Shown: positions 13 through 56,452 of the stretch, piece after piece
Layout of the letters: every line of letters begins with the position of its first letter
How positions within the stretch are numbered: position 1 is the first letter of the stretch
DNA from: a virus
Taxonomy: Duplodnaviria; Caudoviricetes
Reading direction: 5' to 3' (one strand)
Virus record (IMG/VR): IMGVR_UViG_3300044724_011157
Location: 1 to 58,199 of that record
DNA length: 58,199 bases
The notes under the pieces: model-generated
Database searches by the model: none
The model's input: the letters and a program-made list of their open reading frames with translations, nothing else
Told to the model about the DNA's origin: nothing
Position numbers and translations under genes: made by a program

Positions 13-17
13 GTGTA
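13..17 (+). promoter_or_regulatory. GTGTA element (candidate phage late promoter)
   Basis: GTGTA followed by 10 nt and then the ATG at 28; the same motif and spacing recur before many genes. Confidence 0.6.
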
Positions 18-27
18 ATCTACCTAT

Positions 28-954
28 ATGGTAGAACAACTAAGTGGTGCAGGGCAGAGTGTCAGCGTTAATGACATTCGAAACAAAATCAACGAGATCA
101 TTGATGGAGGTCTTGGTGGTGGCGGAAATATCAGCGTATCTGCGAGCCCCCCTCCCAACGCAGCAGAGGGAGATTTGTGGTATGATGACACATCTGCAGC
201 CCTATATGTATATTATGAAAGTCCTATTTCTGCATGGATACAAACAAATGGCAACGGAGGTGGCGGAACGGCCTTAAAGCTTCAGACATCTGATTCCTCA
301 ACTTTGAGCGGAGGAATCATCATTGACCATAGCGGCAATAAGTTAAGAATTTATGAAAATGGAGGGTCTTTTCGCGGCGCTTATTTAGATCTATCTCAAT
401 GTTTTGCATATCAGGGCACAGACGTGTTGAGTTCAGAGGGCGGAGCGGCAGGAGCAATCAACCACACTCCTGGTGTTCAGAGTTTTTATGCAGATATTTC
501 AGATAAGGATTGTTTTTTTCCTTTGCCTATAAGTTATATTGGTCAAGAAAGAACATTTTTAATTACTGTAGCTGGAACCTGGAGCTCTAATACGGTTTGT
601 TCTGCTTTTTCGGGTGTTTCGCGCACCACATCGATTTTAAATATTAGGCCCGGAATGAATATATCTGGAGGTACAAATTTTCCTGTATCTGTTTCAAGCA
701 TGAATGAGCAAGGTGTACTGCAGGTGCAAAGCACGCCTTTTATTTTCAACAAGGATGCTGCAGGAAGCAGAATTTATACAACTTTTCTTCTTTGGAATTG
801 TCCTGCGACAGCTTTTAGCTTAAACAGAGGATCCTCAACGACTATGCAATCTATAACCGTTACAGATTTAGGTTCTGGCGCAACTGCATTCAATCCTCCC
901 GCAGGCTTCACTGCTGAAGCTTACAATTATTTTTATATTGTATCCTATGAGTAA
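28..954 (+). CDS. putative tail fibre / virion structural protein
   Basis: 308 aa; SASPPPNAAEGDLWYDDTSAALYVYYE...WIQT resembles the GDxWxD fibre module of phage tail proteins; Gly/Ser-rich. Confidence 0.55.
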   Translation: MVEQLSGAGQSVSVNDIRNKINEIIDGGLGGGGNISVSASPPPNAAEGDLWYDDTSAALYVYYESPISAWIQTNGNGGGGTALKLQTSDSSTLSGGIIIDHSGNKLRIYENGGSFRGAYLDLSQCFAYQGTDVLSSEGGAAGAINHTPGVQSFYADISDKDCFFPLPISYIGQERTFLITVAGTWSSNTVCSAFSGVSRTTSILNIRPGMNISGGTNFPVSVSSMNEQGVLQVQSTPFIFNKDAAGSRIYTTFLLWNCPATAFSLNRGSSTTMQSITVTDLGSGATAFNPPAGFTAEAYNYFYIVSYE

Positions 955-956
955 AT

Positions 957-3786: not shown

Positions 3787-3791
3787 GTGTA
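3787..3791 (+). promoter_or_regulatory. GTGTA element (candidate late promoter)
   Basis: Intergenic, 38 nt upstream of the ATG at 3830, which is longer than the usual spacing. Confidence 0.45.
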
Positions 3792-7073: not shown

Positions 7074-7074
7074 A

Positions 7075-7079
7075 GTGTA
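7075..7079 (+). promoter_or_regulatory. GTGTA element (candidate late promoter)
   Basis: 9 nt before the ATG at 7089. Confidence 0.6.
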
Positions 7080-7755: not shown

Positions 7756-7886
7756 GAAATATTATAATGTATAATATTGTAAATTATAGTGTTTTTGATA
7801 AAAAGAATATATATTGTGCAGAAAGGTTCTGCAACGATCTAATTAATTTGAGATATTCCCTGTAAAGTTTACAATATTATTTGTGA

Positions 7887-7891
7887 GTGTA
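7887..7891 (+). promoter_or_regulatory. GTGTA element (candidate late promoter)
   Basis: 10 nt before the ATG at 7902. Confidence 0.6.
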
Positions 7892-7901
7892 TAATAATTA
7901 A

Positions 7902-12111: not shown

Positions 12112-12130
12112 TACACTATAATAATGTGTA
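12112..12130. promoter_or_regulatory. back-to-back divergent GTGTA elements
   Basis: TACAC-tataataat-GTGTA; each element is exactly 9 nt from its own ATG (12102 minus, 12140 plus). Confidence 0.65.
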
Positions 12131-12139: not shown

Positions 12140-12574
12140 ATGGGCCCTATATTGAATACAATTATTGGAGCAGGCATAAAACTTGGGTGCAATTTGCTGC
12201 ACGCCTGGCTTGAGCAAAAACGTCAAGATCAATTAGCTTTGGCTGCTCGAGACGATAAAATGCTTGAGGCATTAATTAAAAGTCAGCAAGAGAATGCGGT
12301 TGACCCATTTGTTAAGGAAACTAGAAGGGTTTTGTTTATGTCTATAACATTCACTATGTGCTTTTTGATGATCTATTACGCAATGAATCCAGGAATACAA
12401 TACGATTTAATTGTGCCCAAGGGAGACGGCGCTAAGTGGGGATTTTTTAGTTGGATATTTGGGGGCAAAGACTGGGAAATGGTAAAAATGACTGGGGGCT
12501 TAATGCTTGCCTCATTTATGGATTTATGTTTTATGGTTGTTGGTTTTTACGCAATACCAAGCAAGAAAAGATGA
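12140..12574 (+). CDS. membrane protein, holin-like
   Basis: 144 aa with 2-3 hydrophobic helices and a basic C-terminus; first gene of an ATGA-coupled trio. Confidence 0.5.
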   Translation: MGPILNTIIGAGIKLGCNLLHAWLEQKRQDQLALAARDDKMLEALIKSQQENAVDPFVKETRRVLFMSITFTMCFLMIYYAMNPGIQYDLIVPKGDGAKWGFFSWIFGGKDWEMVKMTGGLMLASFMDLCFMVVGFYAIPSKKR

Positions 12575-12801
12575 TTCGATTTATCCCCCTATTGTTTCTA
12601 TTGAGCTCTTGCATGAGTAAAATAAAAGAGAGCATACCTGTAATTTCCAAAAAAAATGAAGTCGAGCAAGATGTTATTGATGCTCAGTCAAATAAAATTT
12701 TTGTGGAGAACTTAGATTTTAACGGGCCTTTTTTTTGGTTTGGTGTAATAGTTGGTGGAGTTATTTTATTTAACTTGCTTTTAAATTTTTTTAAGAAATG
12801 A
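12571..12801 (+). CDS. lipoprotein with C-terminal TM helix (unimolecular-spanin-like)
   Basis: Start at ATG 12571 (ATGA overlap): MIRFIPLLFLLSS-C lipobox and C-terminal FFWFGVIVGGVILFNLLL followed by KK. Confidence 0.5.
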   Translation: MIRFIPLLFLLSSCMSKIKESIPVISKKNEVEQDVIDAQSNKIFVENLDFNGPFFWFGVIVGGVILFNLLLNFFKK

Positions 12802-13400
12802 ATATGGGATTAGACTTTATAAGCGTGCTAACTGGTATGGTTTCTGCCGCAACGGCAGTTTTTGGTATGTATTTTAAGATGAAATATGACGAAAAGAAGA
12901 GCAAAGAGTTTAGCTATGATCCAAAGTTGCACGAAAATGTTATTTCTGCATTGAAATATATTCAAAGTGAGACCGAAGCTGATCGTGTGTATGTTATGGA
13001 GTTTCACAATGGCGAGCATTATTTCTCTGGCCGCAGTCAGCAAAAATTAAGCTGTACATATGAGATTGTTAGCGAAGGGATTAGTGTTGAGTCTCATAAT
13101 GTGCAGAACATTAGAATTTCAAATTTTCACTCGTTAATCAAACACATATCCGATCGCAGAAAAGATTACCAAACATTAATATGCGAAGATGTAGAAGAAT
13201 ATAATTCAGATATAACATACAAATCATTTCTCCAGCAAAAAGGCGTAAAAAGTATATTTGCACGACCTGTAAAAACATTGAATGGCAAGATATTAGGTGT
13301 TATTGTTTTAGAATATGTAAAAGAAAAAAGAAAATGGAGCGATGAGGCAGAAGAATTTGTTCGCAAACAAGCAAGAACTATTAGTGGTTATTTGATATAA
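12798..13400 (+). CDS. TM plus GAF-like domain protein (T4 T-holin-like architecture)
   Basis: 200 aa; single N-terminal TM; ADRVYVMEFHNG...KSIFARPV...LGVIVLEY GAF pattern. Confidence 0.55.
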   Translation: MNMGLDFISVLTGMVSAATAVFGMYFKMKYDEKKSKEFSYDPKLHENVISALKYIQSETEADRVYVMEFHNGEHYFSGRSQQKLSCTYEIVSEGISVESHNVQNIRISNFHSLIKHISDRRKDYQTLICEDVEEYNSDITYKSFLQQKGVKSIFARPVKTLNGKILGVIVLEYVKEKRKWSDEAEEFVRKQARTISGYLI

Positions 13401-13419
13401 TTATATTTTAGGCTATAAT
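13392..13419 (+). promoter_or_regulatory. sigma70-like promoter
   Basis: TTGATA-N16-TATAAT upstream of the ATG at 13431. Confidence 0.5.
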
Positions 13420-13430: not shown

Positions 13431-13817
13431 ATGGCTTTTTCATACTGTCCCCATTGTGGTTATAAGAATATGTATTCTATGCAAGCTCCCAAATTTTGCG
13501 GAGGTTGCGGAGAAACTTTAGACATATTATCTGCGGCAAAAACGCATGCGACCTCTAAGTCGTCTCCTGTGTCGATTCGCAGAACAGCTCCAAGGGTTCG
13601 CGCCGAGCAAGAAGTGGATGACCCTGACGGGACAGACGTATATCAGGTTCCGAGAATTACGAAGTTGTCTTACAGTATAGAGCAAGATAATAATAAATTT
13701 AGCCTAAAAGATTTCGTACCAGAAGATTTGGTAAAAAATTCAGCAGTCGACATACAAAAGCAACAACAAGAAGAACCAAAGAAGACTAAAAAGCGTGGCA
13801 GACCAAGAAAAAACTAA
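13431..13817 (+). CDS. zinc-ribbon protein with C-terminal AT-hook-like motif
   Basis: CPHCG...FCGGCG at the N-terminus; ends KKRGRPRKN. Confidence 0.65.
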   Translation: MAFSYCPHCGYKNMYSMQAPKFCGGCGETLDILSAAKTHATSKSSPVSIRRTAPRVRAEQEVDDPDGTDVYQVPRITKLSYSIEQDNNKFSLKDFVPEDLVKNSAVDIQKQQQEEPKKTKKRGRPRKN

Positions 13818-14538
13818 ATATACATACGAAGATAAAGCCCAGGAGATTGAAGTTGAGATTAAGAAAAGGAGAGGGAAGTGGTTCCTAGATTCTCTTGCCT
13901 GGTTTGATTTCGATGATGTCGAGCAAATAATAAAAGCCCACATTTACAAAAAGTGGGATCAGTGGGATCAAGAAAGATCTCTAAGGCCTTGGGTGAATAA
14001 AATAATCACCAATCAAATGAAAAATATCTTGCGAAACAATTACAGTAATTTCGTTAGACCCTGCTTGAACTGTCCGTTTAATCAATCCTTTTGTTCAAAA
14101 GATGGGGGCGAAGCTTCTTTGTGTGGCTTCACAAAGTCCGGACTCCAAGACTCTTCGTGTCCGTTATATGCAAAGTGGGAAAAAACAAAAAAGTCCGCTT
14201 ATGGTATAAAGATGGCATTGACCTTAGAAAATCACACTCACGAGGTTGGTGCTATGAGGGATAAATCCTTTGATATAATTGATGCGCAAAATAAGTTAAA
14301 CGCTCACATGAAAAAAGAATTAAGCGAAAAACAATTTCAGGTTTATGATTTATTGTTTATAAAAAACTTAGACGAAGAAGAGGTGGCAAAGACCATGGGA
14401 TATAAAACTAGCGAGAAAGGCAGAAAAGCCGGGTATAAACAAATAAAAAATTTAAAAAAGATATTCAAGCAAAAAGCTCAGGACATTTTAGACCGAGAAG
14501 ATATTATATCTAATAATAATGACCCCACATGGAGATAA
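13795..14538 (+). CDS. phage sigma70/ECF-like RNA polymerase sigma factor with Cys-rich insertion
   Basis: Region 2-like DDVEQ...WDQW...LRPWVNKIITNQMKN; region 4-like LSEKQFQVYDL...EEEVAKTMG; central CLNC...C...C...C. Confidence 0.7.
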   Translation: MADQEKTKYTYEDKAQEIEVEIKKRRGKWFLDSLAWFDFDDVEQIIKAHIYKKWDQWDQERSLRPWVNKIITNQMKNILRNNYSNFVRPCLNCPFNQSFCSKDGGEASLCGFTKSGLQDSSCPLYAKWEKTKKSAYGIKMALTLENHTHEVGAMRDKSFDIIDAQNKLNAHMKKELSEKQFQVYDLLFIKNLDEEEVAKTMGYKTSEKGRKAGYKQIKNLKKIFKQKAQDILDREDIISNNNDPTWR

Positions 14539-18372: not shown

Positions 18373-18377
18373 GTGTA
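18373..18377 (+). promoter_or_regulatory. GTGTA element (candidate late promoter of the head operon)
   Basis: Directly after the terL stop and 14 nt before the ATG at 18392. Confidence 0.55.
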
Positions 18378-18391: not shown

Positions 18392-20008
18392 ATGTCCAAA
18401 GAATATAAATACACTACAACTTTCGAGTCTACGCTTTTTGCGTCTTCTGAATTTGACTCCTCAGATATAAGTCAAGCATCTCTAGAATCTTTAAGGCCAT
18501 TAATTCCTGGGGATATCAATCTAGATAAAAATATTGATCTTTTGGCTGTAGTTTTTAATGCTGCTGTTGTCAATAAATTCAATAAAAATGGAGATGGTAT
18601 AAACAGTGAATCTGCTGTAGCTATAAAAGATTACTTCGTTCATAAGCCAACCAACATCGAGCACGACAGGGATAGAATTGTTGGGCATATTGTGTCTGCA
18701 GGATTTTCTAAATACGATGACAGTTCCGAATTAATCGGTGATGATTCTGCGCTGATAGAAGAAGGTCCTTATAACATTGCACTTTCTGCTGTTATCTATA
18801 AAACTGCAAGCAAAGAGTTTGCTGATTTGGTTGCAAACTCTACCGATCCTGATAGTGATTTTTACAATACCGTCTCTGCAAGTTGGGAGATCGGCTTCAA
18901 TGATTATGTTGTTGCCGTTGGTGGGGATGACTTAAATGAGGCTACAGTAATTTCTGACCCTCAAGAAATTAGCGCTTACTCTCCTTACCTTAAAGCTATG
19001 GGCGGAAAAGGCCAGCTTCAAGACGGACGAAAAGTTAGTCGTTTAATTACTGGAGAAATTTATCCTCTCGGTATAGGTTTTACCTCTAACCCTGCGGCAG
19101 ACGTTCAGGGTTTGATCATAAAAAATGGAGAAAATGGAGAAAATGAAGAAAAGTCACAAAAACCTAGCGAGCGACGAGAACCTATTGACCAGTTAATAAC
19201 AAAAAGCAAAAAAACTTCCCAATCAAACAAACAAAATGTACTAAACAAAGAAACATGTAATAATATTATTATGGATAAAGACCAAATCATAAACGAATTC
19301 CGAGCAGCTTTAGATGAAAAGCTTGGTAGTCAAGAGTTCTCTGAAGAGAGTGTCGCAAGCATCTCTAAAGTTTTCATCGAGGCTATTCGCGAAAAAGGAG
19401 AGCAATATATCGCCGACCTTGAAAAAGCTAAAGCTGAAAAAGAAGAAGCTGTTCAGTCAGAAAATTCTTTACGTTCTCAAATGCAAGAAGTTGAGGATCA
19501 ACTCAAAGCAACTCAAGAAAAGCTTTCCAAGCTGGAAGAAGAAAATTCTGCTCGTGAGGCCGAAGCTCTCTTTAATTCTAGAATGGAAGTAATCAATGAA
19601 GTCTACGAGCTCGACGAAGAAGATTCTCAAGTTTTGGCGTCTGATGTTTCTGATCTTGATGGTTCAGAAGAATCTTTTTCTGCCTATCAAGAAAAAATCG
19701 CAAAAATCTGGAAGCATAAAAATAAAGAATTTATCGCAGCTCAACAAAAAGCTTTTGAAGATCGCGTAGACGAAGAAGTAAGCAAAAGACTTGAATCTAC
19801 CGCTTCAAAAGAAGTAGAAGAAAGCGTGGCTTCTGAAACTCAAGTAGAAGAAGTTCAAGAAGCAGAAGAAGATGTTTCTGAAGTTCTTGACAGTGTAGAA
19901 GTTGAGCAAGCAAACGTAGTCAACAATAACGAATCTTCCTCAGAGGCCGAATCTCTTAGGGATCGTTTAGCAAAGACATTTAAACAATCAATTAAAATTT
20001 CATACTAA
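18392..20008 (+). CDS. prohead protease-scaffold fusion
   Basis: N-terminal NKNGD...KPTNIEH...IVGHI...SASWE...GIGFTSNPA protease-like domain; acidic coiled-coil C-half; position between terL and capsid. Confidence 0.7.
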   Translation: MSKEYKYTTTFESTLFASSEFDSSDISQASLESLRPLIPGDINLDKNIDLLAVVFNAAVVNKFNKNGDGINSESAVAIKDYFVHKPTNIEHDRDRIVGHIVSAGFSKYDDSSELIGDDSALIEEGPYNIALSAVIYKTASKEFADLVANSTDPDSDFYNTVSASWEIGFNDYVVAVGGDDLNEATVISDPQEISAYSPYLKAMGGKGQLQDGRKVSRLITGEIYPLGIGFTSNPAADVQGLIIKNGENGENEEKSQKPSERREPIDQLITKSKKTSQSNKQNVLNKETCNNIIMDKDQIINEFRAALDEKLGSQEFSEESVASISKVFIEAIREKGEQYIADLEKAKAEKEEAVQSENSLRSQMQEVEDQLKATQEKLSKLEEENSAREAEALFNSRMEVINEVYELDEEDSQVLASDVSDLDGSEESFSAYQEKIAKIWKHKNKEFIAAQQKAFEDRVDEEVSKRLESTASKEVEESVASETQVEEVQEAEEDVSEVLDSVEVEQANVVNNNESSSEAESLRDRLAKTFKQSIKISY

Positions 20009-20661: not shown

Positions 20662-21837
20662 ATGAATATTACTTTAGAAAGAACCCCCGAGCAAGTCGAG
20701 CTTATCAAAGCTATGGCTTCCAAGAATCGCGACGTAGCATATGAGGCTCAAACAGCATTAGCTGAATTTATTGGTCCTGTTTTAGCACAGGTTATCAATA
20801 CAGCTCCTACCGTGAGCAATATGTTTACCAGCCTTCAGTTTAATCAAGAAGATAATCCCAGCATTCCGTTGGATCTTTATCACGATATCGACGACGAAGA
20901 CTACATCCAAGTATGGAGTCAAACTGTTCCAGGTGGCCTTCCTACCAATCAGGTAGCACCATCACAAAGCGAGCTTAAGTTCACCACTTATCGCTTGGAC
21001 AGCGCTCTTAGCTTCGATAAGCGTTATGCTTCTCGTTCTCGTCTCGATGTAGTAAGCAAAACATTCACTCGCATGGCTCAAGAAATTCTTCTCAAGCAAG
21101 AGAAAACTTCTGCAGTTATGATTATGAGCGCTTTGGCTAACGCAAAAACCAATGACATCGACCATGTTATTCGTTCTGCTCAAGCTGATCGTTTCTTGCT
21201 TGCTGACCTTAACAGATTGTTCACCAATGCTAAGCGTATTAATACTGCTTGGAATGGCGGAACTCCTGCTGAGCGTCGTGGTCGCGGAATCACCGATCTT
21301 CTTGTTTCTCCTGAAATTGTAGAAGAAATTCGTGGATTGGCTTACAATCCAATCAATACCGTGAGCAACCGCACTCTTAGCTCAGACGTTACAGATGCAT
21401 CCGGGAATGCTGCCAGTGTATCTGGTGGCGGTGGAGATATTGCTGCAACCGATACTCTTCGTGATGCAGTATTCAACAGCGCAGGAATTCCTGAGTTCTA
21501 TGGCGTATCCATTCAAGAATACAATGAAATGGGTAGCGGTCAAAAATGGAACAAGGTCTTTGATAATGCAACAACCGGCAACTTCGCAAATCACTTTGCG
21601 AGTGTGGGCGAGCCTTCTGCATTTGTAGAAGCCAGCGAAGAAATTCTTGTTGGAGTTGATTTGTCTCGTGATTCCATGATTCGCGCAATCGCAACCGATT
21701 CTGAAACCGGAGAAGAATTTTCTCTTGTTACTGATGATCAGTTTGTTACTCGTCAATCCAAGATTGGTTATTATGGATCAATCGAAGAAGGACGTATGAT
21801 CATAGACGATCGTGTATTAACGGGATTGATTGTTTAA
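20662..21837 (+). CDS. major capsid protein
   Basis: 391 aa; follows protease and decoration genes; AAGGA SD; followed by a strong terminator; TDLLVSPE...GYYGSIEEGRMIID resembles an HK97-fold C-terminus. Confidence 0.75.
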   Translation: MNITLERTPEQVELIKAMASKNRDVAYEAQTALAEFIGPVLAQVINTAPTVSNMFTSLQFNQEDNPSIPLDLYHDIDDEDYIQVWSQTVPGGLPTNQVAPSQSELKFTTYRLDSALSFDKRYASRSRLDVVSKTFTRMAQEILLKQEKTSAVMIMSALANAKTNDIDHVIRSAQADRFLLADLNRLFTNAKRINTAWNGGTPAERRGRGITDLLVSPEIVEEIRGLAYNPINTVSNRTLSSDVTDASGNAASVSGGGGDIAATDTLRDAVFNSAGIPEFYGVSIQEYNEMGSGQKWNKVFDNATTGNFANHFASVGEPSAFVEASEEILVGVDLSRDSMIRAIATDSETGEEFSLVTDDQFVTRQSKIGYYGSIEEGRMIIDDRVLTGLIV

Positions 21838-21860: not shown

Positions 21861-21894
21861 AAAATCCACCCTGGGAAACTGGGGTGGATTTTTT
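21861..21894 (+). terminator. rho-independent terminator after the capsid gene
   Basis: AAAATCCACCCTGG-GAAA-CTGGGGTGGATTTTTT hairpin with U tract. Confidence 0.85.
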
Positions 21895-21917: not shown

Positions 21918-21922
21918 GTGTA
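21918..21922 (+). promoter_or_regulatory. GTGTA element (candidate late promoter)
   Basis: Just downstream of the terminator, 27 nt before ATG 21950; this longer leader contains an AAGGA SD. Confidence 0.5.
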
Positions 21923-23186: not shown

Positions 23187-23673
23187 TAAATCAAGTATCA
23201 ACGAGTCCAACAAAAAGTCAAAGTCAGAACTATTTCACATCTGGAAAAAGTCTAGGGTGATGTATGAAATGTTCAGCGATTCGTTTTCGTGCGAAGATTG
23301 GGTTCGGAAAAATATCGCTCAGGCCTACGAGCTCGTGGATAAGGCACTTGCTTATTGTGAATATCAAAAGATTTTTCCAGAAAAAGAATCTGCAGATAAT
23401 CAAGGAGAAAATAATTTTTTAAGCAATGACGACCGAAGATACCCTGTCCCCGCAGAATCCGAAAGTGGTGATCAATTTGTGACAAGGTGCATTTATGATC
23501 CAAATATGAGAAAAAGGTACCCCGTTCAGGCGGATAGATTTTCTGCATGCATGTCAATATTTAACGAAAATCAGCCAACCCAAGAAGACGCGGAGCATTA
23601 CAAGAAGTTTGATGATCCTATGCAAAAACAAGAAGAGGATTTGCCAGATCCTCAAAAACCTATTATGCCTTGA
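23173..23673 (+). CDS. hypothetical head-associated protein
   Basis: 166 aa; PVPAESESGDQFVTRC...M...YP...RFSAC module resembles small domains in phage head proteins. Confidence 0.5.
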   Translation: MNEDSKSSINESNKKSKSELFHIWKKSRVMYEMFSDSFSCEDWVRKNIAQAYELVDKALAYCEYQKIFPEKESADNQGENNFLSNDDRRYPVPAESESGDQFVTRCIYDPNMRKRYPVQADRFSACMSIFNENQPTQEDAEHYKKFDDPMQKQEEDLPDPQKPIMP

Positions 23674-26119
23674 GCTTGCAGATTATTTGATCTTTGCTGA
23701 TTCCGAATGATATTTTAGATCCAGGTTTTGGCTTGTTGATCAATAAAAATTCACTTAACTTATTTTCTATCACATCTTGAATAATTCTTTTTATTGGTCT
23801 AGCTCCAAGCTTTTCTGATTGTGCTTGATTGGATATTCTTGAGCTTACCGCCGGAGAGAATGCAACAGTTATTTGTTGGTCTGAAAGCTTGTTATTTATT
23901 TTATTCAATTCTAATTTTGTGATTTTAAGAAAATCTTTGTCTGAAAAGTCGTTAAACTTTATTACTTCATTTAGTCGATTTAGGAATTCAGGCTTAAAAA
24001 CTTTTTTAAGGGACTTTTTTAGTTTATCTGCAGATTCAGATTCAGAGTGAGATGGCCCAAAGCCTATGTTTGGTTTTGCTATTTCTTCTGCGCCTACATT
24101 GCCTGTCATTATAATGATTGTATTTGTAAAGCTAACTTGTCTGCCTGAGTTGTCCGTTAGGCATCCTTCTTCCATAATTTGTAATAGTATGTTTAATACA
24201 TCTGGGTGAGCCTTTTCTATTTCGTCAAACAAAATTACACTATAAGGATTCTTTCTTACTTTTTCAGTTAATTCTCCGCCTTCTTCATAGCCAACATAAC
24301 CTGGAGAGGCGCCGTTAAGTCTAGATGAAGATATTTTCTCGCTGTACTCGCTCATATCGAGTTGTATCAGGCACTTTGGGTCTCCAAATATAAACTCTGC
24401 AATGTATTTAGCTGTTAAAGTTTTACCTGTTCCGCTTGCACCAACCAAAAGAAAACTGCCTACAGGTTTATTTTTTTCTTTTAACCCTGATCGAGAGCGT
24501 ATGATTGATTGGCATATTTCATTTATGGCGTGTTGTTGTCCAATAATTTTTTTGTTTAAATTTGTTGCTAGATTAAGTATTTTTTGGCCTTCTGACTGGG
24601 CGATTTCTTTTATAGGGATTCCTGTTCTAGCAGAAACCACTAGATGAACATCTTTGTTTTTCGCTGCAAATTTTTTCTTGATTGTTTTGTTTGCCCAAGT
24701 CTCTATAATTTTATCGTATTGCTCTAAGAGAACAATTTGCTCTTCTTCTATTTGATCAATAGCATAGCCTAATGATTCTAATTTAGATTCTTTTTCAGCT
24801 AGCTGATCTAGTCTATCTTCAATATCTTTGGCCTCCTGAGGTCGTTTGATATTTTTAATTTTAACTTTTGCTCCAACTTGATCAAGAATGTCTATTGCTT
24901 TGTCTGGAAATTTTTTGGAAGGAATGTACTTATCGGCAAGATTAACTATGGTATTTATTATACCTTCACTGTATGTTATACTGTGAAACTTTTCGTATTT
25001 ATTTTTGATGCCCATTAAAATTTGTACAACTTCTTCCTTGCTTGGTTCTGAGACTTTTACGGGTTGAAAGCGGCGATCTAGCGCTCCATCTTTTAGTATT
25101 GTTTTTTTGTATTCTTCTTGGGTAGTTGCCCCTATGCATTTAAGTTCTCCCCTGGCAAGTAGGGGTTTTAGTAGGTTTGCCGCGTCCATGGCTCCTTCAG
25201 CGGCTCCAGCTCCAACCATAGTATGTATTTCATCTATGAATAAAATAATTTCTGGATGCTTTTTAACTTCTTCTATGATACCTTTTAACCTCTCTTCAAA
25301 TTGACCTCTATATTTGGTTCCTGCAATAAGAGAACCTAGATCAAGAGAGTATATAACTTTGCCAATTAAAAAATCAGGACAATCCCCATGATATATTTTC
25401 ATCGACAAACCTTCTGTTATTGCAGTTTTTCCAACCCCAGGGTCTCCAAGTAGCACGGGGTTGTTTTTTGTTCTCCTGCATAAAATTTCACAGACCTCCG
25501 CAATCTCTCTTTGTTTTCCAATGACTTCATCAATTTTTTTCTGTTTGCACAGCTCCATGAGATTCGAGGCAAACTTTTCAAGATTAGGGCATTTGGAGTC
25601 TTTTTTGGTGGGTTTTGTTTTGCTTGTAAATTTTATTTTAGGAATTTGTGGTTTAGCTATATCCTTGGATATATGGAGATACTCTCTAACTTCTGAGATA
25701 ATATCATCCTCAGAAGCATTAAACTTCATAAAAAAATCAGGTATAGCAGAGTATTCATACTTTAATAAAGATAGTAAAATGTGTTCTATTCCTACATATT
25801 CATGACCAAGTTTACTGCTTATACTAACTGAAACCTTGAGTATAAGGTGAAAATGTTCGTCATATGTAGGTTCGTCTTCATTTTGAGGGTATTGATCTGT
25901 CGTGTGCGGTAATAAAGATTTTTCTATTTCTAGCTTTAGTTCTTCTGGGTTTATATTTAATATAAATAAAATTTCATTTAATATACCAGCATTTAAATTA
26001 ACCATTGCATAAAATAAATGCTCTACAGAAATAAGATTGTTTTGAAATTTTTTAGCAACTCTTTTGGCTTCACTGATCGCCTGCTGTGCGCGCGGCGTAA
26101 AATTGGGTTTTGGAGTCAT
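23663..26119 (-). CDS. clpC: ClpC/ClpA-family AAA+ chaperone (Clp protease ATP-binding subunit)
   Basis: Clp N-domain (FTPRAQQ, EHL), Walker A GDPGVGKT and [27 protein letters not shown] loop; ATG 26119 lies 11 nt from a GTGTA. Confidence 0.92.
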
Positions 26120-26130: not shown

Positions 26131-26135
26131 TACAC
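26131..26135 (-). promoter_or_regulatory. GTGTA element (candidate late promoter for clpC)
   Basis: TACAC on the plus strand, 11 nt from the ATG at 26119. Confidence 0.55.
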
Positions 26136-29340: not shown

Positions 29341-29843
29341 TTTAAATCTTTTCTTTCTTCGTCTCCATAGTTGATAAATAATTCTTGGCCTTTTTTGATT
29401 TTTTGGTTTGTTGTATATCTGAATACAAAATCTTTATAATCTATTGAATAGTCTATATTGTTATGTTTAGAGTGATTGTATATCATGCCGAAACCTAAAA
29501 CAGTTGCGCTAGAAAAAATTTTGGAAATATCTTCATACCCTAATTCTCTAATTTCTTCAAGGAATGAGTTTTGGAGCTCCTCGTCGTCTAGGAACATTGC
29601 GAGTTTAGACCTAAAGTCTAACCCTTGGTTTTCTTCGGGGGATAGATTTTTATCGTGAAATATAGAGAAGACATACCTTAATAGTTCTTTGTCTTGCATG
29701 TCTTTTGAGCAACCAGATATTATGAAGTGACATTCTTCTACAACTTCCCCTTCGTCTAGGTCTTGTGTGGCAAAAACACCTCTGCCTTTGACCTTCGATT
29801 TTCTGACTGCAATTTTTGTTGGAGGTACGAGCTCTTCTTTCAT
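29337..29843 (-). CDS. SET-domain protein-lysine methyltransferase
   Basis: KGRGVFA, GMIYNHS and KKGQELFINYG SET motifs; ATG 29843 in an ATGA overlap. Confidence 0.88.
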   Translation of the reverse strand: MKEELVPPTKIAVRKSKVKGRGVFATQDLDEGEVVEECHFIISGCSKDMQDKELLRYVFSIFHDKNLSPEENQGLDFRSKLAMFLDDEELQNSFLEEIRELGYEDISKIFSSATVLGFGMIYNHSKHNNIDYSIDYKDFVFRYTTNQKIKKGQELFINYGDEERKDLK

Positions 29844-30601
29844 GCTTTTTCTTTCCAGCTTTGAAAGCAAAATTCATTGCTTCCGAAGTGATCTAAGTTT
29901 GGCTTTGATAATGTTTTGAGTCCGCCGAAACTACGACTTGTTATGCATCTATATGTTTGGAATGCAGCGACATCTTTTTTTTCTTTATAATATATACTTT
30001 TTGTTGTTTCGGTTTTGTGTTTTTTATTCTCTGCATATTCTTTGACTTTTTTAGCAAGGAACTGATCAAATGGTAGCGAGTTATCTTCAATGAAGAAGGT
30101 TGGGTCGCAGAACTTAAAGCTTGGCGTACAGTTTGAGAACTTCATTAAATTGTTGTATATAAAGCTGTCATAAAAAGGAATTGCTAATAATAGCTTATCT
30201 TTGTTCCAGTGTTTCTTGAGCATCTTTTCGTCAACGCAGTTATAATTTTTGGTGAACGCTTCGCTGTAGATGTTATTGAGAATCTTGCAGCCCTCAAAAT
30301 TTTTGGAGAAAATAATAATTTTATGCGAAGAACTCATCTTTTCGTTTTTTGGATCGATACTTGCGTCCTCCCTCATATTTATGCGAAGTCCAAAAATTAA
30401 TTTTATATTTAGTTTCTCGGCGTTTTTCTTGGCCTGTAAAAATCCTGTCAAGGAATCCTCGACTAGTACAACTTCTTTTAGGTTATTTTCTACAGCAATA
30501 CTAAAAATACTATCTGCTCCACCTTCTTTATGTGTAATTGGGTCGTCTAGAGTTAATATACTTTTGCCGATTGAATAATGACTTTTGAATAAAGGTAACA
30601 T
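29840..30601 (-). CDS. stand-alone PHP domain of DNA polymerase III alpha
   Basis: LFKSHYSIGKS...LVEDS..GF....K..IKLIFG...IIFSKNFEGCK.L follows the DnaE PHP pattern with degenerate metal ligands. Confidence 0.75.
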   Translation of the reverse strand: MLPLFKSHYSIGKSILTLDDPITHKEGGADSIFSIAVENNLKEVVLVEDSLTGFLQAKKNAEKLNIKLIFGLRINMREDASIDPKNEKMSSSHKIIIFSKNFEGCKILNNIYSEAFTKNYNCVDEKMLKKHWNKDKLLLAIPFYDSFIYNNLMKFSNCTPSFKFCDPTFFIEDNSLPFDQFLAKKVKEYAENKKHKTETTKSIYYKEKKDVAAFQTYRCITSRSFGGLKTLSKPNLDHFGSNEFCFQSWKEKA

Positions 30602-30608: not shown

Positions 30609-30637
30609 ATTTTATCAAAAAACATTCAAGCTGTCAA
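30609..30637 (-). promoter_or_regulatory. sigma70-like promoter of the polymerase operon
   Basis: TTGACA-N17-TAAAAT with an extended -10 TG; ATG 30601 follows after 7 nt. Confidence 0.75.
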
Positions 30638-30671: not shown

Positions 30672-30700
30672 TTGACATAACTCTGTTGAAATGTTAATAT
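30672..30700 (+). promoter_or_regulatory. sigma70-like promoter of nrdA
   Basis: TTGACA-N17-TAATAT with TGn extension. Confidence 0.75.
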
Positions 30701-30712
30701 TTAAGGTAATTT

Positions 30713-33162: not shown

Positions 33163-33191
33163 TTGACAACGTTATACATATTTGATATATT
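33163..33191 (+). promoter_or_regulatory. sigma70-like promoter of nrdB
   Basis: TTGACA-N17-TATATT with TGn; ATG follows after 6 nt. Confidence 0.7.
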
Positions 33192-34400: not shown

Positions 34401-34808
34401 ATGTCATACTATATAAACAATTCATACAACAAAAATACTAACGCATGGAGCAATCTTTTTGATGAAATACTCTCAGATTCACTGTTTGACACAGTTGAGT
34501 CAAAACGTCGCGCAAATATTGTGTCTCGAGAAAAAGAAATTGAAATACAATTAGAATGCCCCGGCGTCTCAAAAGAGGATATCCAACTATCTTGTGAAAG
34601 TGGTGTTCTAAAAGTTGTGTGCAAATCGCCGCAACAACAAGAAGAACAATACCTACATCAACAATTTGAACCGCGCGAGTCGACCAATCTATTCACCCTC
34701 AAAAACGAACTCGACACAAACAAAATCAAGGCCACAAACAAAGATGGCATACTATACATAAACATACCCAGAAAACAACAAAAAACAAAACGTATAGAAA
34801 TAGATTGA
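34401..34808 (+). CDS. small heat-shock protein (Hsp20/alpha-crystallin)
   Basis: ECPGVSKEDI, IKATNKDGILYINIP and C-terminal IEI motif; ATG 34401 preferred over GTG 34362. Confidence 0.88.
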   Translation: MSYYINNSYNKNTNAWSNLFDEILSDSLFDTVESKRRANIVSREKEIEIQLECPGVSKEDIQLSCESGVLKVVCKSPQQQEEQYLHQQFEPRESTNLFTLKNELDTNKIKATNKDGILYINIPRKQQKTKRIEID

Positions 34809-34832
34809 CTTTTGTGAAATTTATGATATTAT
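34805..34832 (+). promoter_or_regulatory. sigma70-like promoter
   Basis: TTGACT-N16-TATTAT with TGn, upstream of 34848. Confidence 0.55.
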
Positions 34833-34847
34833 ATACAGTTTAAAATT

Positions 34848-35498
34848 ATGAAAACTAAATTATTAACACTTGCTGCTTTGGCAGCCCTTTCTATTAACGC
34901 AGCTTTTGCTGGATCTGGATCTTTGTCCACCGGCTACGGCTCGGATGTATTTCGTCGCGGATCTCTGATCTCAGAAGATTCTCTACAAACGTCCGCATCT
35001 TATATCACCGCAAGGGGTGGATTTGATGTTTCAGTTGGCGCGCAAACCGCACACAGCACAGGTGCAGACAGCGATGTTTATATTCTTTCTGGTGGTGTTG
35101 GCAAGAGCCTTGGGTCATTGCTTTCTGTTTATGGCGGAATTGAGCATTTTGAGCAGCTTGATGGCGCAAGCAATCTTGATGTTGTATTGAGTGCAGATTT
35201 GAATACTTTGTTGAATCCAACCGTTTCTGCGGCTCGTAATGTTGATGAAAGTCAATACACATTCGAAGCTGGCCTATCGCACGACATTTCTATCAATAAT
35301 ATTGATTTGTCGGTTCGCGGAACACTTGGTAATACAGATCTAAACGCTGGAGATAATATTGATTATTATTCTGTTGGCGTTGGCGCAAGCAAAAGCCTGA
35401 CCAAGAATCTTACTCTTTCATTGAGCGTTGATCAGGTAAATTCTGATGTTATCGAAAGCGATTGCATTGTTGCCGCCGCATTGACTGCGAGTTTTTAA
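34848..35498 (+). CDS. outer-membrane beta-barrel protein (TorF/TIGR02001-like putative porin)
   Basis: Sec signal peptide (AFA cleavage), alternating amphipathic strands, GYGSDVFRRG and C-terminal Phe. Confidence 0.7.
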   Translation: MKTKLLTLAALAALSINAAFAGSGSLSTGYGSDVFRRGSLISEDSLQTSASYITARGGFDVSVGAQTAHSTGADSDVYILSGGVGKSLGSLLSVYGGIEHFEQLDGASNLDVVLSADLNTLLNPTVSAARNVDESQYTFEAGLSHDISINNIDLSVRGTLGNTDLNAGDNIDYYSVGVGASKSLTKNLTLSLSVDQVNSDVIESDCIVAAALTASF

Positions 35499-42180: not shown

Positions 42181-43137
42181 TTACACGAATTTTTGTTTAT
42201 TTTCTAAATACCAATTGTATGTTTTCTGCAATCCTTGTTTTAGTGTGTGTTTTGGCCTGCATCCTAAGTTAATCATTCTGTGGTTGTTCATTTTTTTGCG
42301 ATAGGTTCCGTCAGGTTTCGAGCTATCAAAAACAATATCTCCTGTATAGCCAACGACGTGTTGTATGATGTTTGTTAATTCAAGAATGGTGACCTCATCT
42401 TCGGATCCGCAGTTGAGGTGCGAGATTCCTTGTTCATATACGTCGATTGCGTCGACACATTCTAGGCAGTGTGTCGACATTTCTGCCAGATCATCGACAT
42501 ATAAAAATTCGCGAAGCGGTTTTCCTGTACCCCAAACTTCAATACTTTTTGCGCCATTTTCTTTTGCTTCATGCACTTTTCGAATGAGAGCAGGCAGAAC
42601 ATGCGAGCTCTTTAGGTCAAAGTTGTCGCGTGGTCCGTACATGTTGCAAGGCATAATCGAATAAAAATTTCTATTATATTGTTCGTAATAGCTTTCGCAC
42701 ATTTTGATTGCGGCTATTTTTGCAATTGCATATGGTTCGTTTGTTTTTTCTAGCACGCCAGTCAATAAACTTTCTTCAACGATCGGTATGTCTGCATCTT
42801 TGGGGTAAATGCATGAGCTGCCAAGGTTGATTAATTTTTGCACATTGTATATGTGCGAGCCGTGAATTAAGTTTGAAGCAATTTGGAGGTTTTGGTATAT
42901 AAAGTCCGCTCGATATGTATTGTTTGCTAGAATGCCTCCCACTTTGGCTGCGCAGATAATTACTGCATCTGGACGTTCTTTACCAAGAAAACGATTAACA
43001 TCAGTTTGCTTGGTTAAGTCGAGCTCGCTTCTTGTGCGAACGATTGTATTTGTGTAGCCATTTTCTTTTAAGTGGCTTAGCACTGCAGAGCCAACCATTC
43101 CGTTGTGTCCGGCAATGAATATTTTTTGGTTTTTCAC
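42181..43137 (-). CDS. fcl: GDP-L-fucose synthase
   Basis: AGHNGMVGSA, AAKVGGI, LGSSCIYP, YAIAK, WGTGKPLREFL and KPDG. Confidence 0.95.
   Translation of the reverse strand: MKNQKIFIAGHNGMVGSAVLSHLKENGYTNTIVRTRSELDLTKQTDVNRFLGKERPDAVIICAAKVGGILANNTYRADFIYQNLQIASNLIHGSHIYNVQKLINLGSSCIYPKDADIPIVEESLLTGVLEKTNEPYAIAKIAAIKMCESYYEQYNRNFYSIMPCNMYGPRDNFDLKSSHVLPALIRKVHEAKENGAKSIEVWGTGKPLREFLYVDDLAEMSTHCLECVDAIDVYEQGISHLNCGSEDEVTILELTNIIQHVVGYTGDIVFDSSKPDGTYRKKMNNHRMINLGCRPKHTLKQGLQKTYNWYLENKQKFV
42182..42186 (-). promoter_or_regulatory. GTGTA element (candidate late promoter for the fibre operon)
   Basis: Embedded in the last codons of fcl (GTG TAA), 10 nt from ATG 42171. Confidence 0.6.
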
Positions 43138-44165
43138 CTTGATAATAACTTATAATCGTTTTCGTACATTTTTTTAACCAGTCCAGTGAAGTCAGTTTTG
43201 CGAGCCCACCCCATTTCTTTTTCCGCAAGACTGCAATCACCGCACAATTCGTGAACTTCTGCTGGTCGATAAAACTTTGGATCAACTTCGAAAATCAATT
43301 TTCCGTCTAAGGTATAATATTTTTCATTATCTTCCGCGCCTTCACTTTTAAATTGAATGCCTGCACACTGCAATGTTTCTTCGAGGAACTCGCGAACTGT
43401 ATGCATTTCACCGCTAGCTAAAACATAGTTCTTTGGCGCATCTTGATTGAGCATTAGCCATACACCTTCCATAAAATCTTCTGCATCACTCCAGTCTCGT
43501 TGAGCTTCAATGTTTCCTAATTTTAATACAGGAATTGTTTTTTCTTTTTCTAGGGCAATTTTAATTTTTGCAATGCTATGACTAATCTTTCGGGTTACAA
43601 AATCTAAGCCTCGACGCACTCCTTCGTGATTGAAAAGCCAGCCTTGAACTGCGTATAGGTCGTAAGATTCCCTGTAAACCCGCACGAGATGACGTGCAGC
43701 GCATTTAGCAGCTCCATATGGACTTTGGGGTCTTAATGGATGCGTTTCGCTTTGCGGGCTGCATATCACGTCTCCAAATTCTTCACTAGATCCAGCATTA
43801 TAGAATCTGCAATCGGGCGCAAATCTACGAATGGATTCGAGGATATGAAGTACAGCATTTGAGTCAGTGTCCCATGTTTGTATTGGGTAATCCCAGCTGC
43901 CTGCTACAAAAGACTGCGCCGCAAAATTGATAAAATAATCGGGCTGCAAGTCAATTACTACATCTCGCATACTGTGTGCATCATTAAGGTCCATATTGAT
44001 CAATTTAAATCTAGGTTCATTTTCAAGATGTAATATGTTTTCATGGTTTTTAACACTCAATCTTCTAGCGGCTCCATATATTTTATAATCTGTATGCTTT
44101 AATAAATACTCAACCATATGACTTCCGTCTTGGCCGGTTACTCCTGTTACGATAATTTTTTTCAT
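43134..44165 (-). CDS. gmd: GDP-mannose 4,6-dehydratase
   Basis: TGVTGQDGS, AAQSFV, SSEEFG, SPYGAAK, LFNHE, FVTRKI and YRPAEV; ATG 44165 in an ATGA overlap. Confidence 0.95.
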   Translation of the reverse strand: MKKIIVTGVTGQDGSHMVEYLLKHTDYKIYGAARRLSVKNHENILHLENEPRFKLINMDLNDAHSMRDVVIDLQPDYFINFAAQSFVAGSWDYPIQTWDTDSNAVLHILESIRRFAPDCRFYNAGSSEEFGDVICSPQSETHPLRPQSPYGAAKCAARHLVRVYRESYDLYAVQGWLFNHEGVRRGLDFVTRKISHSIAKIKIALEKEKTIPVLKLGNIEAQRDWSDAEDFMEGVWLMLNQDAPKNYVLASGEMHTVREFLEETLQCAGIQFKSEGAEDNEKYYTLDGKLIFEVDPKFYRPAEVHELCGDCSLAEKEMGWARKTDFTGLVKKMYENDYKLLSR

Positions 44166-44575
44166 AATTTTAGTTTTAATATACACCCTCTAGTTTCTTT
44201 TGTCATTGGTTCTGGCAAACTTTTTTTTTCGATTTTAAAAAACCCCCATTCGTCGTGCTCTATTGCATCAATGGCGTCACTGCTTGGGAAGATGAGGTCA
44301 TCAATTTGCATCGAGTATAACGCAAAATATTCAGCCTCTTTAACCTCAAAGTCATCGAGGAATTTTATTTGTTTATTTACTCGGACGCCCGTCTCTTCGA
44401 AAAATTCTCTTTTTGCCGCCGTTTCAGGATTTTCTCCTGGATCAATCATCCCACAAGGCACTGACCAGTGTCCAGCTAAATTATGACAGTTCCTGCTCCG
44501 CCTGCCAAGCAGCACAAGGTCTTTAAAATTTGCGATTATTCCTGCAGCGATATATTTTTTAGTCGAGGAAATCAT
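44162..44575 (-). CDS. Nudix hydrolase
   Basis: Nudix box GMIDPGENPETAAKREFFEETG. Confidence 0.88.
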   Translation of the reverse strand: MISSTKKYIAAGIIANFKDLVLLGRRSRNCHNLAGHWSVPCGMIDPGENPETAAKREFFEETGVRVNKQIKFLDDFEVKEAEYFALYSMQIDDLIFPSSDAIDAIEHDEWGFFKIEKKSLPEPMTKETRGCILKLKL

Positions 44576-48179: not shown

Positions 48180-48208
48180 ATGATAGCAAAAAAAGCTTAA
48201 ACAGTCAA
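48180..48208 (-). promoter_or_regulatory. sigma70-like promoter of the dnaB operon
   Basis: TTGACT-N17-TATCAT with TGn; ATG follows after 6 nt. Confidence 0.72.
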
Positions 48209-48486: not shown

Positions 48487-48503
48487 AATATATTATACAC
48501 AGA

Positions 48504-50341: not shown

Positions 50342-50370
50342 AGTCTAGCATAAAACATGTCGTTCGTCAA
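50342..50370 (-). promoter_or_regulatory. sigma70-like promoter of the recA operon
   Basis: TTGACG-N17-TAGACT with TGn; GTG follows after 6 nt. Confidence 0.72.
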
Positions 50371-52604: not shown

Positions 52605-52623
52605 TATAGTAATACTTACACTT

Positions 52624-52800: not shown

Positions 52801-52832
52801 AAATAAGGTATACACAATATATTGTAGCGATA

Positions 52833-52881
52833 AAAGTATAAAGTTAACTTTTAACTTTAAATAGACTTTACTTTAACTTTT
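52833..52881. repeat. AAAGT/ACTTT repeat array with AAAGTTAACTTT palindrome
   Basis: Two AAAGT then five ACTTT copies in about 50 bp between divergent GTGTA elements. Confidence 0.55.
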
Positions 52882-52886
52882 GTGTA
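52882..52886 (+). promoter_or_regulatory. GTGTA element (candidate late promoter of the portal gene)
   Basis: 9 nt before the ATG at 52896. Confidence 0.6.
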
Positions 52887-55065: not shown

Positions 55066-55080
55066 ATTTTATATATACAC

Positions 55081-55698: not shown

Positions 55699-55731
55699 TT
55701 TAATTACAACCTTTCATATTTTATATTACAC

Positions 55732-55757
55732 AAAAAAGGCGGCCCAGATGGGCCGCC
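55732..55757 (-). terminator. rho-independent terminator
   Basis: Minus strand GGCGGCCCA-TC-TGGGCCGCC-TTTTTT, immediately followed by GTGTA (55727-55731). Confidence 0.85.
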
Positions 55758-55780
55758 CAAGATAAACAATCTTGCTCGAA

Positions 55781-56377
55781 TTAGATGGAGCCAAGTACTT
55801 CGATTGTATAGTTGGTCGATGAAATATCGTCCGAAAATACAAAAGTAGCAGTATGGTTTCCATTTCCATTTCCTCCGGAAACGCTCGAGAGCATAACGCC
55901 AAGAATTGGGTCAGTAGCCTCGGAAGACTTGAGGATACCAACAACTTTTGGTGCGTTTGCTCCGAAGTCGCGACCAAGGTCAACGGCGACAGAGCTTACT
56001 GCGTCTCCGCTTTCCCAGATTTGCTTGCTAGCAACAATAACATCATTTGTTGAGATGTCTGCTGCAAGACTGGAAACCTCGAAGTTTGCTGTGAAGTTCA
56101 AGCTAGAAACGTCTTGTTCGAGATCATCAACATCCGCTTCTCTTTGAGCCTGAAGGCTGGAAACGTCGGTAGTTGCTGTGCCACCCTGGGATGATTGATC
56201 TGCAGCCAAGCTAGAAACATCATAGTCGCGCTTAAAGTGCAAGCTTGAGATGTCGCTCTCATCAAGAAAAACCACATCGTTTTTCCCTTTGATTTGGAAC
56301 TTGTTTGCCTCGCTAGATACAACGGAGATATTGTCTCCATTGATCTGTAATTCCTCGGTACGGAATATTTTAGCCAT
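55781..56377 (-). CDS. putative fibre/structural protein with DVSSL repeats
   Basis: 198 aa; five D/E-V/I-SSL repeats, then a beta-rich C-terminal domain; ATGTA variant 9 nt upstream. Confidence 0.55.
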   Translation of the reverse strand: MAKIFRTEELQINGDNISVVSSEANKFQIKGKNDVVFLDESDISSLHFKRDYDVSSLAADQSSQGGTATTDVSSLQAQREADVDDLEQDVSSLNFTANFEVSSLAADISTNDVIVASKQIWESGDAVSSVAVDLGRDFGANAPKVVGILKSSEATDPILGVMLSSVSGGNGNGNHTATFVFSDDISSTNYTIEVLGSI

Positions 56378-56452
56378 ATCTATTTATACATTCTAAAAAC
56401 TAGCTTGGGAACTAAGATGGAGGCGTATTGGGCGATCATTTACACAAGAATC

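Follow-up and report, generated by a model that had tools for sequence, protein, structure and literature searches.

The contig IMGVR_UViG_3300044724_011157 from IMG/VR, which belongs to an uncultured marine phage (Caudoviricetes) and whose entire 58,199 bp formed the analyzed window, carries the pentanucleotide GTGTA at a near-constant distance upstream of many start codons. This word is probably a single-box promoter that is read by a phage-encoded sigma factor and gives rise to near-leaderless mRNAs, with the sigma factor encoded at 13795..14538 on the plus strand (hereafter the 13795 sigma) as the leading candidate for the reader. The observations that carry this reading are the position of the word, its conservation, its avoidance inside genes on both strands, its occurrence before tRNA genes, and the sigma fold of the candidate reader. 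An earlier reading of the same sequence (the original prediction) had proposed GTGTA as a novel late-promoter element paired with this sigma factor, by analogy with gp55 of bacteriophage T4.

GTGTA is locked to start codons

The overall abundance of GTGTA is not raised, as 52 copies are present on both strands of the contig versus 63.2 ± 7.5 in shuffled sequences. Seventeen of these 52 copies are followed on their own strand by a start codon at a distance of at most 38 nt. When 5-mers are ranked by enrichment in the 25 nt preceding gene starts, GTGTA comes first (11 of 62 starts versus 0.58 expected, Poisson P = 4×10−11). The 62 starts are heuristic gene calls, which missed those at 12102 and 52800. 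The same word ranks first upstream of starts in three related genomes, where it precedes 17 of 123 starts in G001 (0.57 expected), 10 of 80 in G002 (0.58 expected), and 25 of 243 in G004 (1.76 expected). The other words enriched upstream of starts in the contig and its relatives are generic A/T-rich strings. In G002 (L189-L191), TAACC and ATAAC likewise exceed expectation in the 25-nt stretch upstream of starts (13 versus 1.72); they may represent another signal in this more distant relative and were not seen in the contig.

The distance between GTGTA and the start codon was measured in 1,648 distinct start contexts from the contig and related loci, many of which are orthologues and thus not independent. 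Among the 342 copies found at positions −60 to −1, 225 have a spacer of 9–12 nt (106, 68, 22, and 29 copies, respectively), and control words of similar composition show no comparable spacer peak. All 238 near sites are followed by ATG, which was not used as evidence because the gene caller favors ATG. Across 71 sites in four genomes, the conserved features are GTGTA itself, its A/T-rich flanks, and a mild preference for AA at −6/−5 from the G; no −35 consensus was found upstream of GTGTA in these sites.

Gene 18392 offers a view of the box across greater divergence. Of the 43 distinct sequences upstream of its homologues, 42 contain GTGTA no more than 45 nt from the aligned start, mostly abutting the terminase stop codon, and the sequence of the spacer drifts. 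The homologues in G001 and G002 are only 48–50% identical to the protein of the contig. Positional enrichment over background and conservation in phages carrying the sigma factor, both proposed as checks in the original prediction, are borne out.

GTGTA as a probable DNA-level element

Clusters of tRNA and transfer-messenger RNA (tmRNA) genes in the relatives provide a setting in which a translation signal would have no role. GTGTA is located 13 and 15 nt upstream of two of the eight distinct cluster heads, where ~0.05 would be expected by chance according to our own estimate, and two other heads have TTGAC-type promoters. The leaders of protein genes point in the same direction. With GTGTA at 8–15 nt, 9 of 238 contexts have a Shine-Dalgarno (SD)-like word at −18 to −4, compared with 36 of 68 when GTGTA is at 16–60 nt and 179 of 1,334 when GTGTA is lacking. 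The far class consists mostly of orthologues of gene 21950, which are not independent cases; in these a strong terminator is followed by 20–30 A/T-rich bases, GTGTA, a leader of 27–29 nt with AAGGAAAAAGG-like words, and ATG. Judging from this layout, the arrangement at gene 21950 is a promoter with an ordinary leader.

The word is also avoided within genes. In the four genomes pooled, the coding-strand 5-mer that falls furthest below a maximal-order Markov expectation is TACAC, the reverse complement of the box (72 versus 164.1, ratio 0.44, rank 1 of 1,024), and GTGTA ranks third (68 versus 110.1, ratio 0.62). TACAC ranks between first and third in each of the four genomes singly. In the genes of the contig, TACAC occurs 13 times versus 28.1 under the Markov expectation (rank 2 of 1,013) and 14 times versus 36.3 under a synonymous-codon shuffle (z = −4.5; none of 200 shuffles was as low). 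Avoidance of TACAC is predicted by selection against stray promoters, but not by a signal in mRNA.

Copies of the box also stand where transcription units begin. Two of the four strongest terminator-like hairpins in the contig (21861-21892 and 55758-55737) have GTGTA directly after them, and both divergent junctions (12102/12140 and 52800/52896) carry one box per strand.

An alternative is that GTGTA acts in RNA, either as a translation-initiation signal other than an SD word or as a processing site ~10 nt before AUG. The tight spacing to ATG and the scarcity of SD-like words at these genes would both be explained in this way, and so would the frequency of the word in short co-directional gaps (79 of 324 starts with a gap of 0–19 nt; 4 of 362 overlapping starts). 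These gap-class counts do not discriminate a promoter from a ribosome signal, and the gene caller swells the “divergent” class with small open reading frames (ORFs). An RNA signal fits poorly with boxes before untranslated tRNA genes, with the orthologues of gene 21950 that keep the box away from ATG, after a terminator and before a separate SD-like word, with TACAC being the most avoided coding-strand 5-mer, and with boxes on both strands at divergent junctions. In addition, the usual anti-SD tail of 16S rRNA is not complementary to GTGTA. Action in RNA is improbable on these grounds, and a DNA-level promoter element rather than a ribosome signal is well supported by sequence, if unproven. 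The claims of the original prediction that several copies stand at the heads of transcription units and that the genes behind them generally lack an SD word hold. As for the ribosome-binding signal that it had set against its promoter, the tRNA heads, the leader content, and the avoidance of TACAC favor DNA, whereas the tight co-directional gaps fit either.

Host-type promoters are also locked to start codons

Among the 436 starts without GTGTA in the four genomes, the most position-locked word is TTGAC, with 45 of its 94 copies ending 29–31 nt upstream of the start. This lock corresponds to a geometry of −35 element, 17 nt, −10 element, 6 nt, and ATG. Four examples, each with TG, are found in the contig. 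TTGACA-17-TATATT at 33163..33191 (+) ends 6 nt before ATG 33198 of the small-subunit gene of ribonucleotide reductase (RNR), TTGACT-17-TATCAT at 48180..48208 (−) ends 6 nt before ATG 48173 of a DnaB-like helicase gene, TTGACG-17-TAGACT at 50342..50370 (−) ends 6 nt before GTG 50335, and TTGACA-17-TAAAAT at 30609..30637 (−) ends 7 nt before the in-frame ATG 30601 of a PHP-domain gene. The position of the last promoter suggests that the PHP-domain gene starts at 30601, later than 30625. Host-type promoters are also present at 30672-30713 and 34805-34848, where the distance from the −10 hexamer to the start is 12 and 15 nt. The word TGTCAT, found 8 nt before starts, was considered as a second phage-specific motif and rejected, as it is the TGn-CAT of a host-type extended −10 following TTGAC.

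Host-type promoters placed 6–7 nt before the starts of genes for replication and nucleotide metabolism imply that the early mRNAs may be leaderless. If so, leaderless expression is already established in the phage and its host, and a −10-like box ~10 nt upstream of a start codon is compatible with it. As a separate observation, the SD-like words AGGAC, TAGGA, and AAGGA are among the most depleted in-gene 5-mers of the contig under the synonymous-codon shuffle. This suggests that the host ribosomes may use the anti-SD sequence, though most of the phage genes lack an SD word.

The 13795 sigma factor

The 13795 sigma is a protein of 247 aa with an extracytoplasmic function (ECF)-like sigma2 domain, an insert with four cysteines (Cys4; C90, C93, C110, and C122), and a sigma4 domain. 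It matches the Pfam family Sigma70_r2 (PF04542) with 24.5 bits at a cut-off of 24, whereas sigma4 is below threshold by sequence (PF08281, 15.2 versus 25.7 bits). The family comprises 421 clusters at 50% identity, and N77, C90, C93, C110, C122, and W128 are invariant in an alignment of 74 members. When the family profile was compared with PDB, the ECF sigma2 domains of SigR (1h3l, E = 2.7×10−4), SigW (E = 1.6×10−3), SigE, and CnrH were matched, to E = 0.015; a search of PDB with the single 13795 sequence returned chance matches only. For P0144 and P0116, which represent distant sigma clades, IMG/VR yielded no loci.

In the AlphaFold2 (AF2) model of the protein (pLDDT 91), three helices build the sigma2 domain (residues 12-84) and four helices the sigma4 domain (161-234), separated by a small Cys4 module (~88-122). 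Using VIA-align, residues 156-239 of the model were matched to the sigma4 domains of 3mzy (Z 9.5, root-mean-square deviation 2.2, 71 residues aligned), 2h27 (Z 8.1), and 6ono (Z 8.2). Whole ECF sigma factors scored Z 8–9, including SigL (6dv9, Z 8.9), and chains containing sigma2 only scored Z 6.5–7.5. Foldseek returned no match to the model at E ≤ 0.001, and nearly all of its weak rows were sigma factors. The modelled protein has both the sigma2 and the sigma4 domain that define a member of the sigma70 family, and it is predicted to bind core RNA polymerase and to initiate transcription. Every one of the 74 aligned members has the Cys4 module (contig 14059-14163) inserted between its sigma2 and sigma4 domains, and this module possibly forms a zinc ribbon in place of sigma region 3.

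The 13795 gene is closely followed by the terminase and head genes. It belongs to a gene pair with 13431, which is headed by a sigma70-type promoter (TTGATA-16-TATAAT, 13392..13419, +) 11 nt before ATG 13431, so the host enzyme could make the 13795 sigma. A copy of GTGTA at 12743 was considered as the promoter of the GAF-sigma genes and rejected, as it lies inside a plausible ORF with no terminator-like fold upstream. This ORF (12613-12801, +) has 62 codons and a hydrophobic C-terminal stretch, and lies between genes 12140..12574 and 12798..13400.

Which polymerase reads the box

A second sigma-like ORF is present in G004, a genome that CheckV rates 100% complete. Its product has 197 aa, scores 23.6 bits against PF04542, and is encoded in an operon headed by TTGACA-17-TATACT-6-ATG; homologues were found in G005 (63% identity) and G001 (42%). 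No second sigma was found in the contig, G002, or G006, all three of which lack that genome region or are incomplete. The contig aligns to ~125–175 kb of G004 and the second sigma gene lies outside this region, which explains its absence. The lack of the gene in G006 (CheckV 93%) was set aside as uninformative for assigning the reader, because nothing in G006 corresponds to the first 65 kb of G004, the part that holds the gene. It is conceivable that GTGTA is a promoter read by this ~200-aa sigma of the early operon, or by the host holoenzyme re-targeted through another phage factor, and that the 13795 sigma serves another, undetected class of genes. A sigma factor made early under a host-type promoter would be well suited to turning on the class of genes that follows. 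This assignment nevertheless leaves the 13795 sigma without a position-locked phage-specific word of its own, as the other locked words are host-type promoters. It must also be set against the location of the 13795 gene just upstream of terminase and head genes, and against the finding that the records with GTGTA boxes all carry a 13795-type sigma (4 of 4 tested, plus G005 and G006). Furthermore, the Cys4 insert would occupy the position from which sigma region 3.0 contacts an extended −10, a placement that would fit a box without a −35. A reader other than the 13795 sigma is unlikely in our judgment, and the 13795 sigma is a plausible reader of GTGTA. The original prediction is thus supported, indirectly, with regard to a promoter giving near-leaderless mRNAs, whereas its assignment of the 13795 sigma as the reader is not established, given the second sigma in the relatives.

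Two further explanations do without a phage sigma factor. GTGTA might be a weak extended −10 promoter of the unmodified host sigma70 holoenzyme. Such a role is suggested by the box at 7887, which overlaps a good TTTACA-16-TATAAT (7868-7895), and by the fact that transcription starting at the ATG would put the TA of GTGTA at T−12/A−11 of a −10 hexamer. There is, however, no −35 element, and T occupies the −7-equivalent position in only 42% of the 71 sites, compared with each of the six clear host-type promoters in the contig. The TG of GTGTA is one base off the extended −10 TGn register, and the two promoter classes serve different gene sets, all of which makes the unmodified host enzyme very improbable. 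The slightest chance is given to recognition of GTGTA as a promoter, independently of any sigma, by an RNA polymerase that the phage itself encodes, whether YonO-like, N4-like, or of another type. Some head proteins show a weak feature-level likeness to SPbeta Yon proteins, which provides leads only, and G004 encodes a 3,308-aa protein without a Pfam family. Against such a polymerase, the beta-prime domain (PF00623) is absent in all five records searched (G004 and four others) with a valid control, the remaining giant proteins of G004 are tail proteins, and two sigma genes are conserved. A search of the same five records for a T7-type polymerase (PF00940) found no match, with the control search also empty. 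A protein of G001 bearing D.DGD (ADYDGD), the sole candidate with this motif, was considered as a polymerase and rejected, as it belongs to no family and has no homologue in five other records.

Several points weigh against a GTGTA promoter read by the 13795 sigma. The protein has a predicted sigma4 domain, yet the 71 sites show no −35 consensus. A second sigma-like gene exists in G004, G001, and G005, and no second phage-specific position-locked motif that the other sigma could read was found among the starts of the four genomes. Six of the eight tRNA/tmRNA heads lack GTGTA, and sense-strand GTGTA is not depleted in the genes of the contig (22 versus 22.7 under the codon shuffle and 22 versus 27.8 under the Markov expectation). 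The frequency of the word in co-directional gaps of 0–19 nt is also what a ribosome signal would produce, and the counts over related loci are rich in orthologues and come from a heuristic gene caller that favors ATG. No homology to gp36 of phage phiEco32, the sigma factor of a comparable promoter system, was detected with the 13795 family alignment (hhalign probability 1.4% over 17 columns), in a comparison of limited power because gp36 (NC_010324, phi32_36) entered as a single sequence. Finally, we infer the transcription start, the identity of the sigma, the timing, and the promoter function itself from sequence.

A proposed mechanism

Under the reading favored here, GTGTA would be the core of a one-box promoter that has no −35 consensus and is recognized as DNA. 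The box would be read by the core RNA polymerase of the host in complex with a sigma from the phage, for which the 13795 sigma is the leading candidate and the second sigma of the early operon the alternative. With the box 9–12 nt before ATG, transcription would begin at the start codon or 1–3 nt upstream of it, giving leaders of 0–3 nt, and the resulting near-leaderless mRNAs would not need an SD word. At a minority of sites the box is 16–40 nt upstream, and there the leader tends to hold its own SD-like word.

Two registers may be considered. If the final A of GTGTA is A−11, as in the geometry of the host class with 10 nt from A−11 to +1, a spacer of 10 nt would place the start on the A of ATG. 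If the register is that of phiEco32 (T−12, G−11, T−10, A−9; PMC12276001), transcription would start 1–2 nt before ATG. The GTGTA class would serve virion genes and other genes outside replication, and the host-type TTGACA-N17-TATAAT class would serve replication and nucleotide metabolism. In G004, boxes precede the genes for a tape-measure-like protein (2,202 aa) and a tail-fiber protein (2,381 aa), and these tail genes, together with the head operon of the contig, support a late, virion-gene class.

A bolder proposal, which we regard as doubtful, would be that these abundant marine phages, with genomes to ~184 kb, express nearly their whole gene program from leaderless mRNAs and carry a new ECF-like family of sigma factors. 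In this proposal, a Cys4 zinc module replacing region 3 would read the GTG as duplex and the TA (T−12, A−11) would melt, giving an extended −10 promoter that needs no −35.

GTGTA sites in the contig

All 13 sites listed with short spacers in the original prediction are present with the spacers it gave, as are an ATGTA variant and three sites with long leaders. On the plus strand, the short-spacer boxes are at 13..17 (10 nt before ATG 28 of gene 28..954), 7075..7079 (9 nt before ATG 7089), 7887..7891 (10 nt before ATG 7902), 12126..12130 (9 nt before ATG 12140), 18373..18377 (14 nt before ATG 18392), and 52882..52886 (9 nt before ATG 52896). On the minus strand, they are at 12112..12116 (9 nt before ATG 12102), 26131..26135 (11 nt before ATG 26119 of 23663..26119, which encodes a ClpB-like ATPase), 42182..42186 (10 nt before ATG 42171), 48496..48500 (9 nt before ATG 48486), 52617..52621 (12 nt before ATG 52604), 52811..52815 (10 nt before ATG 52800), and 55076..55080 (10 nt before ATG 55065). 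The boxes at 12112 and 12126 stand back to back at one divergent junction, and those at 52811 and 52882 belong to the other. Repeat words of the form AACTTT(T)AACTTT occupy 52830-52881, upstream of the box of gene 52896, and similar repeats also precede GTGTA boxes in G004, G001, and G002; such repeats may bind a regulator or reflect DNA curvature.

The box at 18373 abuts the terminase stop codon and heads a run of head genes through 20662..21837, which likely encodes the major capsid protein, a lead at this stage. This gene is followed by a strong terminator-like hairpin of 14 pairs (21861..21892, +) and then by the GTGTA box at 21918..21922 (+), whose 27-nt leader contains the SD-like AGGAAA before ATG 21950, an arrangement common to many relatives. 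The box at 42182 (−) heads a gene run to ~35649 that includes two genes for LamG-domain proteins. A further box at 44182..44186 (−), absent from the list of the original prediction, lies 16 nt before ATG 44165 of a GDP-mannose 4,6-dehydratase gene. The other long-leader boxes are at 3787..3791 (+), 38 nt before ATG 3830, and at 55727..55731 (−), 28 nt before ATG 55698, and the ATGTA variant is at 56387..56391 (−), 9 nt before ATG 56377. With regard to the gene classes named in the original prediction, a chaperone (the ClpB-like ATPase) and, as a lead, a capsid-like protein are found behind boxes; 18392..20008 was not shown to be a portal gene, and no lysis gene was identified among the genes of the contig.

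The hairpin 55758-55737, with its T-run, directly precedes the box at 55727 (−). The gene corresponding to 55698 starts 9 nt past a GTGTA box in both G004 and G001. In the contig, the ATG found 10 nt past the box opens a frame of only five codons (MKGCN, then stop), which is in frame with ATG 55698. The contig copy of the gene may therefore carry a nonsense change near its original start.

Source genome, relatives, and gene content

CheckV estimates the contig, with a G+C content of ~37%, to be 43% complete. Its relative G004 has 184,324 bp. Among 50,697 phage records, no nucleotide match to the contig was found, a tblastn search with the 13795 sigma gave no match, and the terminase reaches at most 27.5% identity; the contig has no close relative in culture. 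In IMG/VR, 301 stretches encode confirmed relatives of the 13795 sigma and 458 encode confirmed relatives of gene 18392. The contig is thus part of a large, widespread, uncultured phage group, and the majority of the proteins of this group have no match to any known family. In G004, a tmRNA gene was predicted by ARAGORN at 66721-67082 (L168 6721-7082), with the tag peptide AKNINSVESFSQEGLALAA.

The recognizable genes of the contig encode a T4-type terminase, a GAF-domain protein, and an ERCC4-type nuclease with a zinc finger, together with a DnaE-type polymerase, the RNR large subunit, a DnaB-like helicase, the RNR small subunit, and an exonuclease. SET-domain and PHP-domain proteins, Hsp20, two LamG-domain proteins, a NUDIX protein, a PD-(D/E)XK nuclease, and a GDP-mannose dehydratase and epimerase are also encoded. 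The SET-domain protein (29337-29870, −) lies within the polymerase operon, and the product of 34848-35498 (+) has a weak match to Gram-negative porins (24.5 bits, under the cut-off). The phage-borne GDP-mannose 4,6-dehydratase and NAD-dependent epimerase are at 42181-44165 (−). Contigs matching the dehydratase are a 1.9-kb contig in a Flavobacteriaceae metagenome-assembled genome (MAG) bin (94% identity) and a 210-kb contig in a Cellvibrionales MAG bin (82%). An assignment of the host from these matches was dropped, because the matched contigs may be phage themselves.

Comparison with known systems

The original prediction compared GTGTA with the late promoters of T4 (TATAAATA), whose reader gp55 acts together with gp33 and the sliding clamp. 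Both systems would have −10-only late promoters, a phage sigma-like reader, and many promoters directly before late genes. In contrast to gp55, which corresponds to sigma2 only, the model of the 13795 sigma has a sigma4 domain; T4 gp55 (chain 7d7d_F) aligns to the model with Z 7.0, through the sigma2 part only. The enriched word in the contig is GTGTA rather than TATAAATA, and the late mRNAs of T4 carry normal, SD-containing leaders. The sigma4 domain and the unrelated motif weaken the comparison, and T4 gp55 is not borne out as the best analogy.

The 13795 sigma resembles ECF (group 4) sigma factors in its sigma2 profile matches and its sigma2-plus-sigma4 architecture, and ECF −10 elements often contain GT, e.g., CGTA or GTC. 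It differs from them in the Cys4 module between the two domains and in its sites, as ECF promoters need a conserved −35 and none was found in the 71 sites. No anti-sigma gene was identified. A promoter element locked to the start, combined with the lack of an SD, is typical of the leaderless genes known from Actinobacteria, Deinococcus, and archaea, and the GTGTA and TTGAC classes described here share both traits. The difference is that here the setting is a phage with two promoter classes, one of them apparently phage-specific. If leaderless translation from both classes is true, it would constrain the abilities of the host. If the starts are confirmed, the box would offer a simple rule for calling gene starts, delimiting transcription units, and separating the late class.

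In the full-text literature searched, supplementary files excepted, GTGTA is not described as a phage promoter, nor are the transcription signals of this phage group. The novelty claimed in the original prediction thus stands for the word and the sigma family but not for the kind of promoter, as phiEco32 provides a close published precedent. There, the phage sigma gp36, together with gp79, directs middle and late transcription from promoters with a single element, tAATGTAtA, while early genes use sigma70 (PMC8948821); the element AATGTA is centered at −11.5 (PMC12276001).

The phiEco32 system has the basic design proposed here, in which a two-domain phage sigma on the host core reads one TGTA-containing element near −10 with no −35, the position of the element being inferred in our case. 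The word in the contig has G where phiEco32 has A, with one ATGTA variant. The 13795 family has its invariant Cys4 insert and no detectable homology to gp36, and in the structural comparison gp36 (chain 9m7y_F) reaches Z 7.3, no better than many other sigma factors. The boxes described here are locked 9–12 nt before starts, and the mRNAs are predicted to be near-leaderless. Even with these differences, the gp36 system is the nearest described one, closer than T4 gp55. If the reading proposed here is true, the 13795 sigma would join gp36 as the second natural two-domain sigma with a one-piece promoter, and its zinc module would suggest a mechanism.

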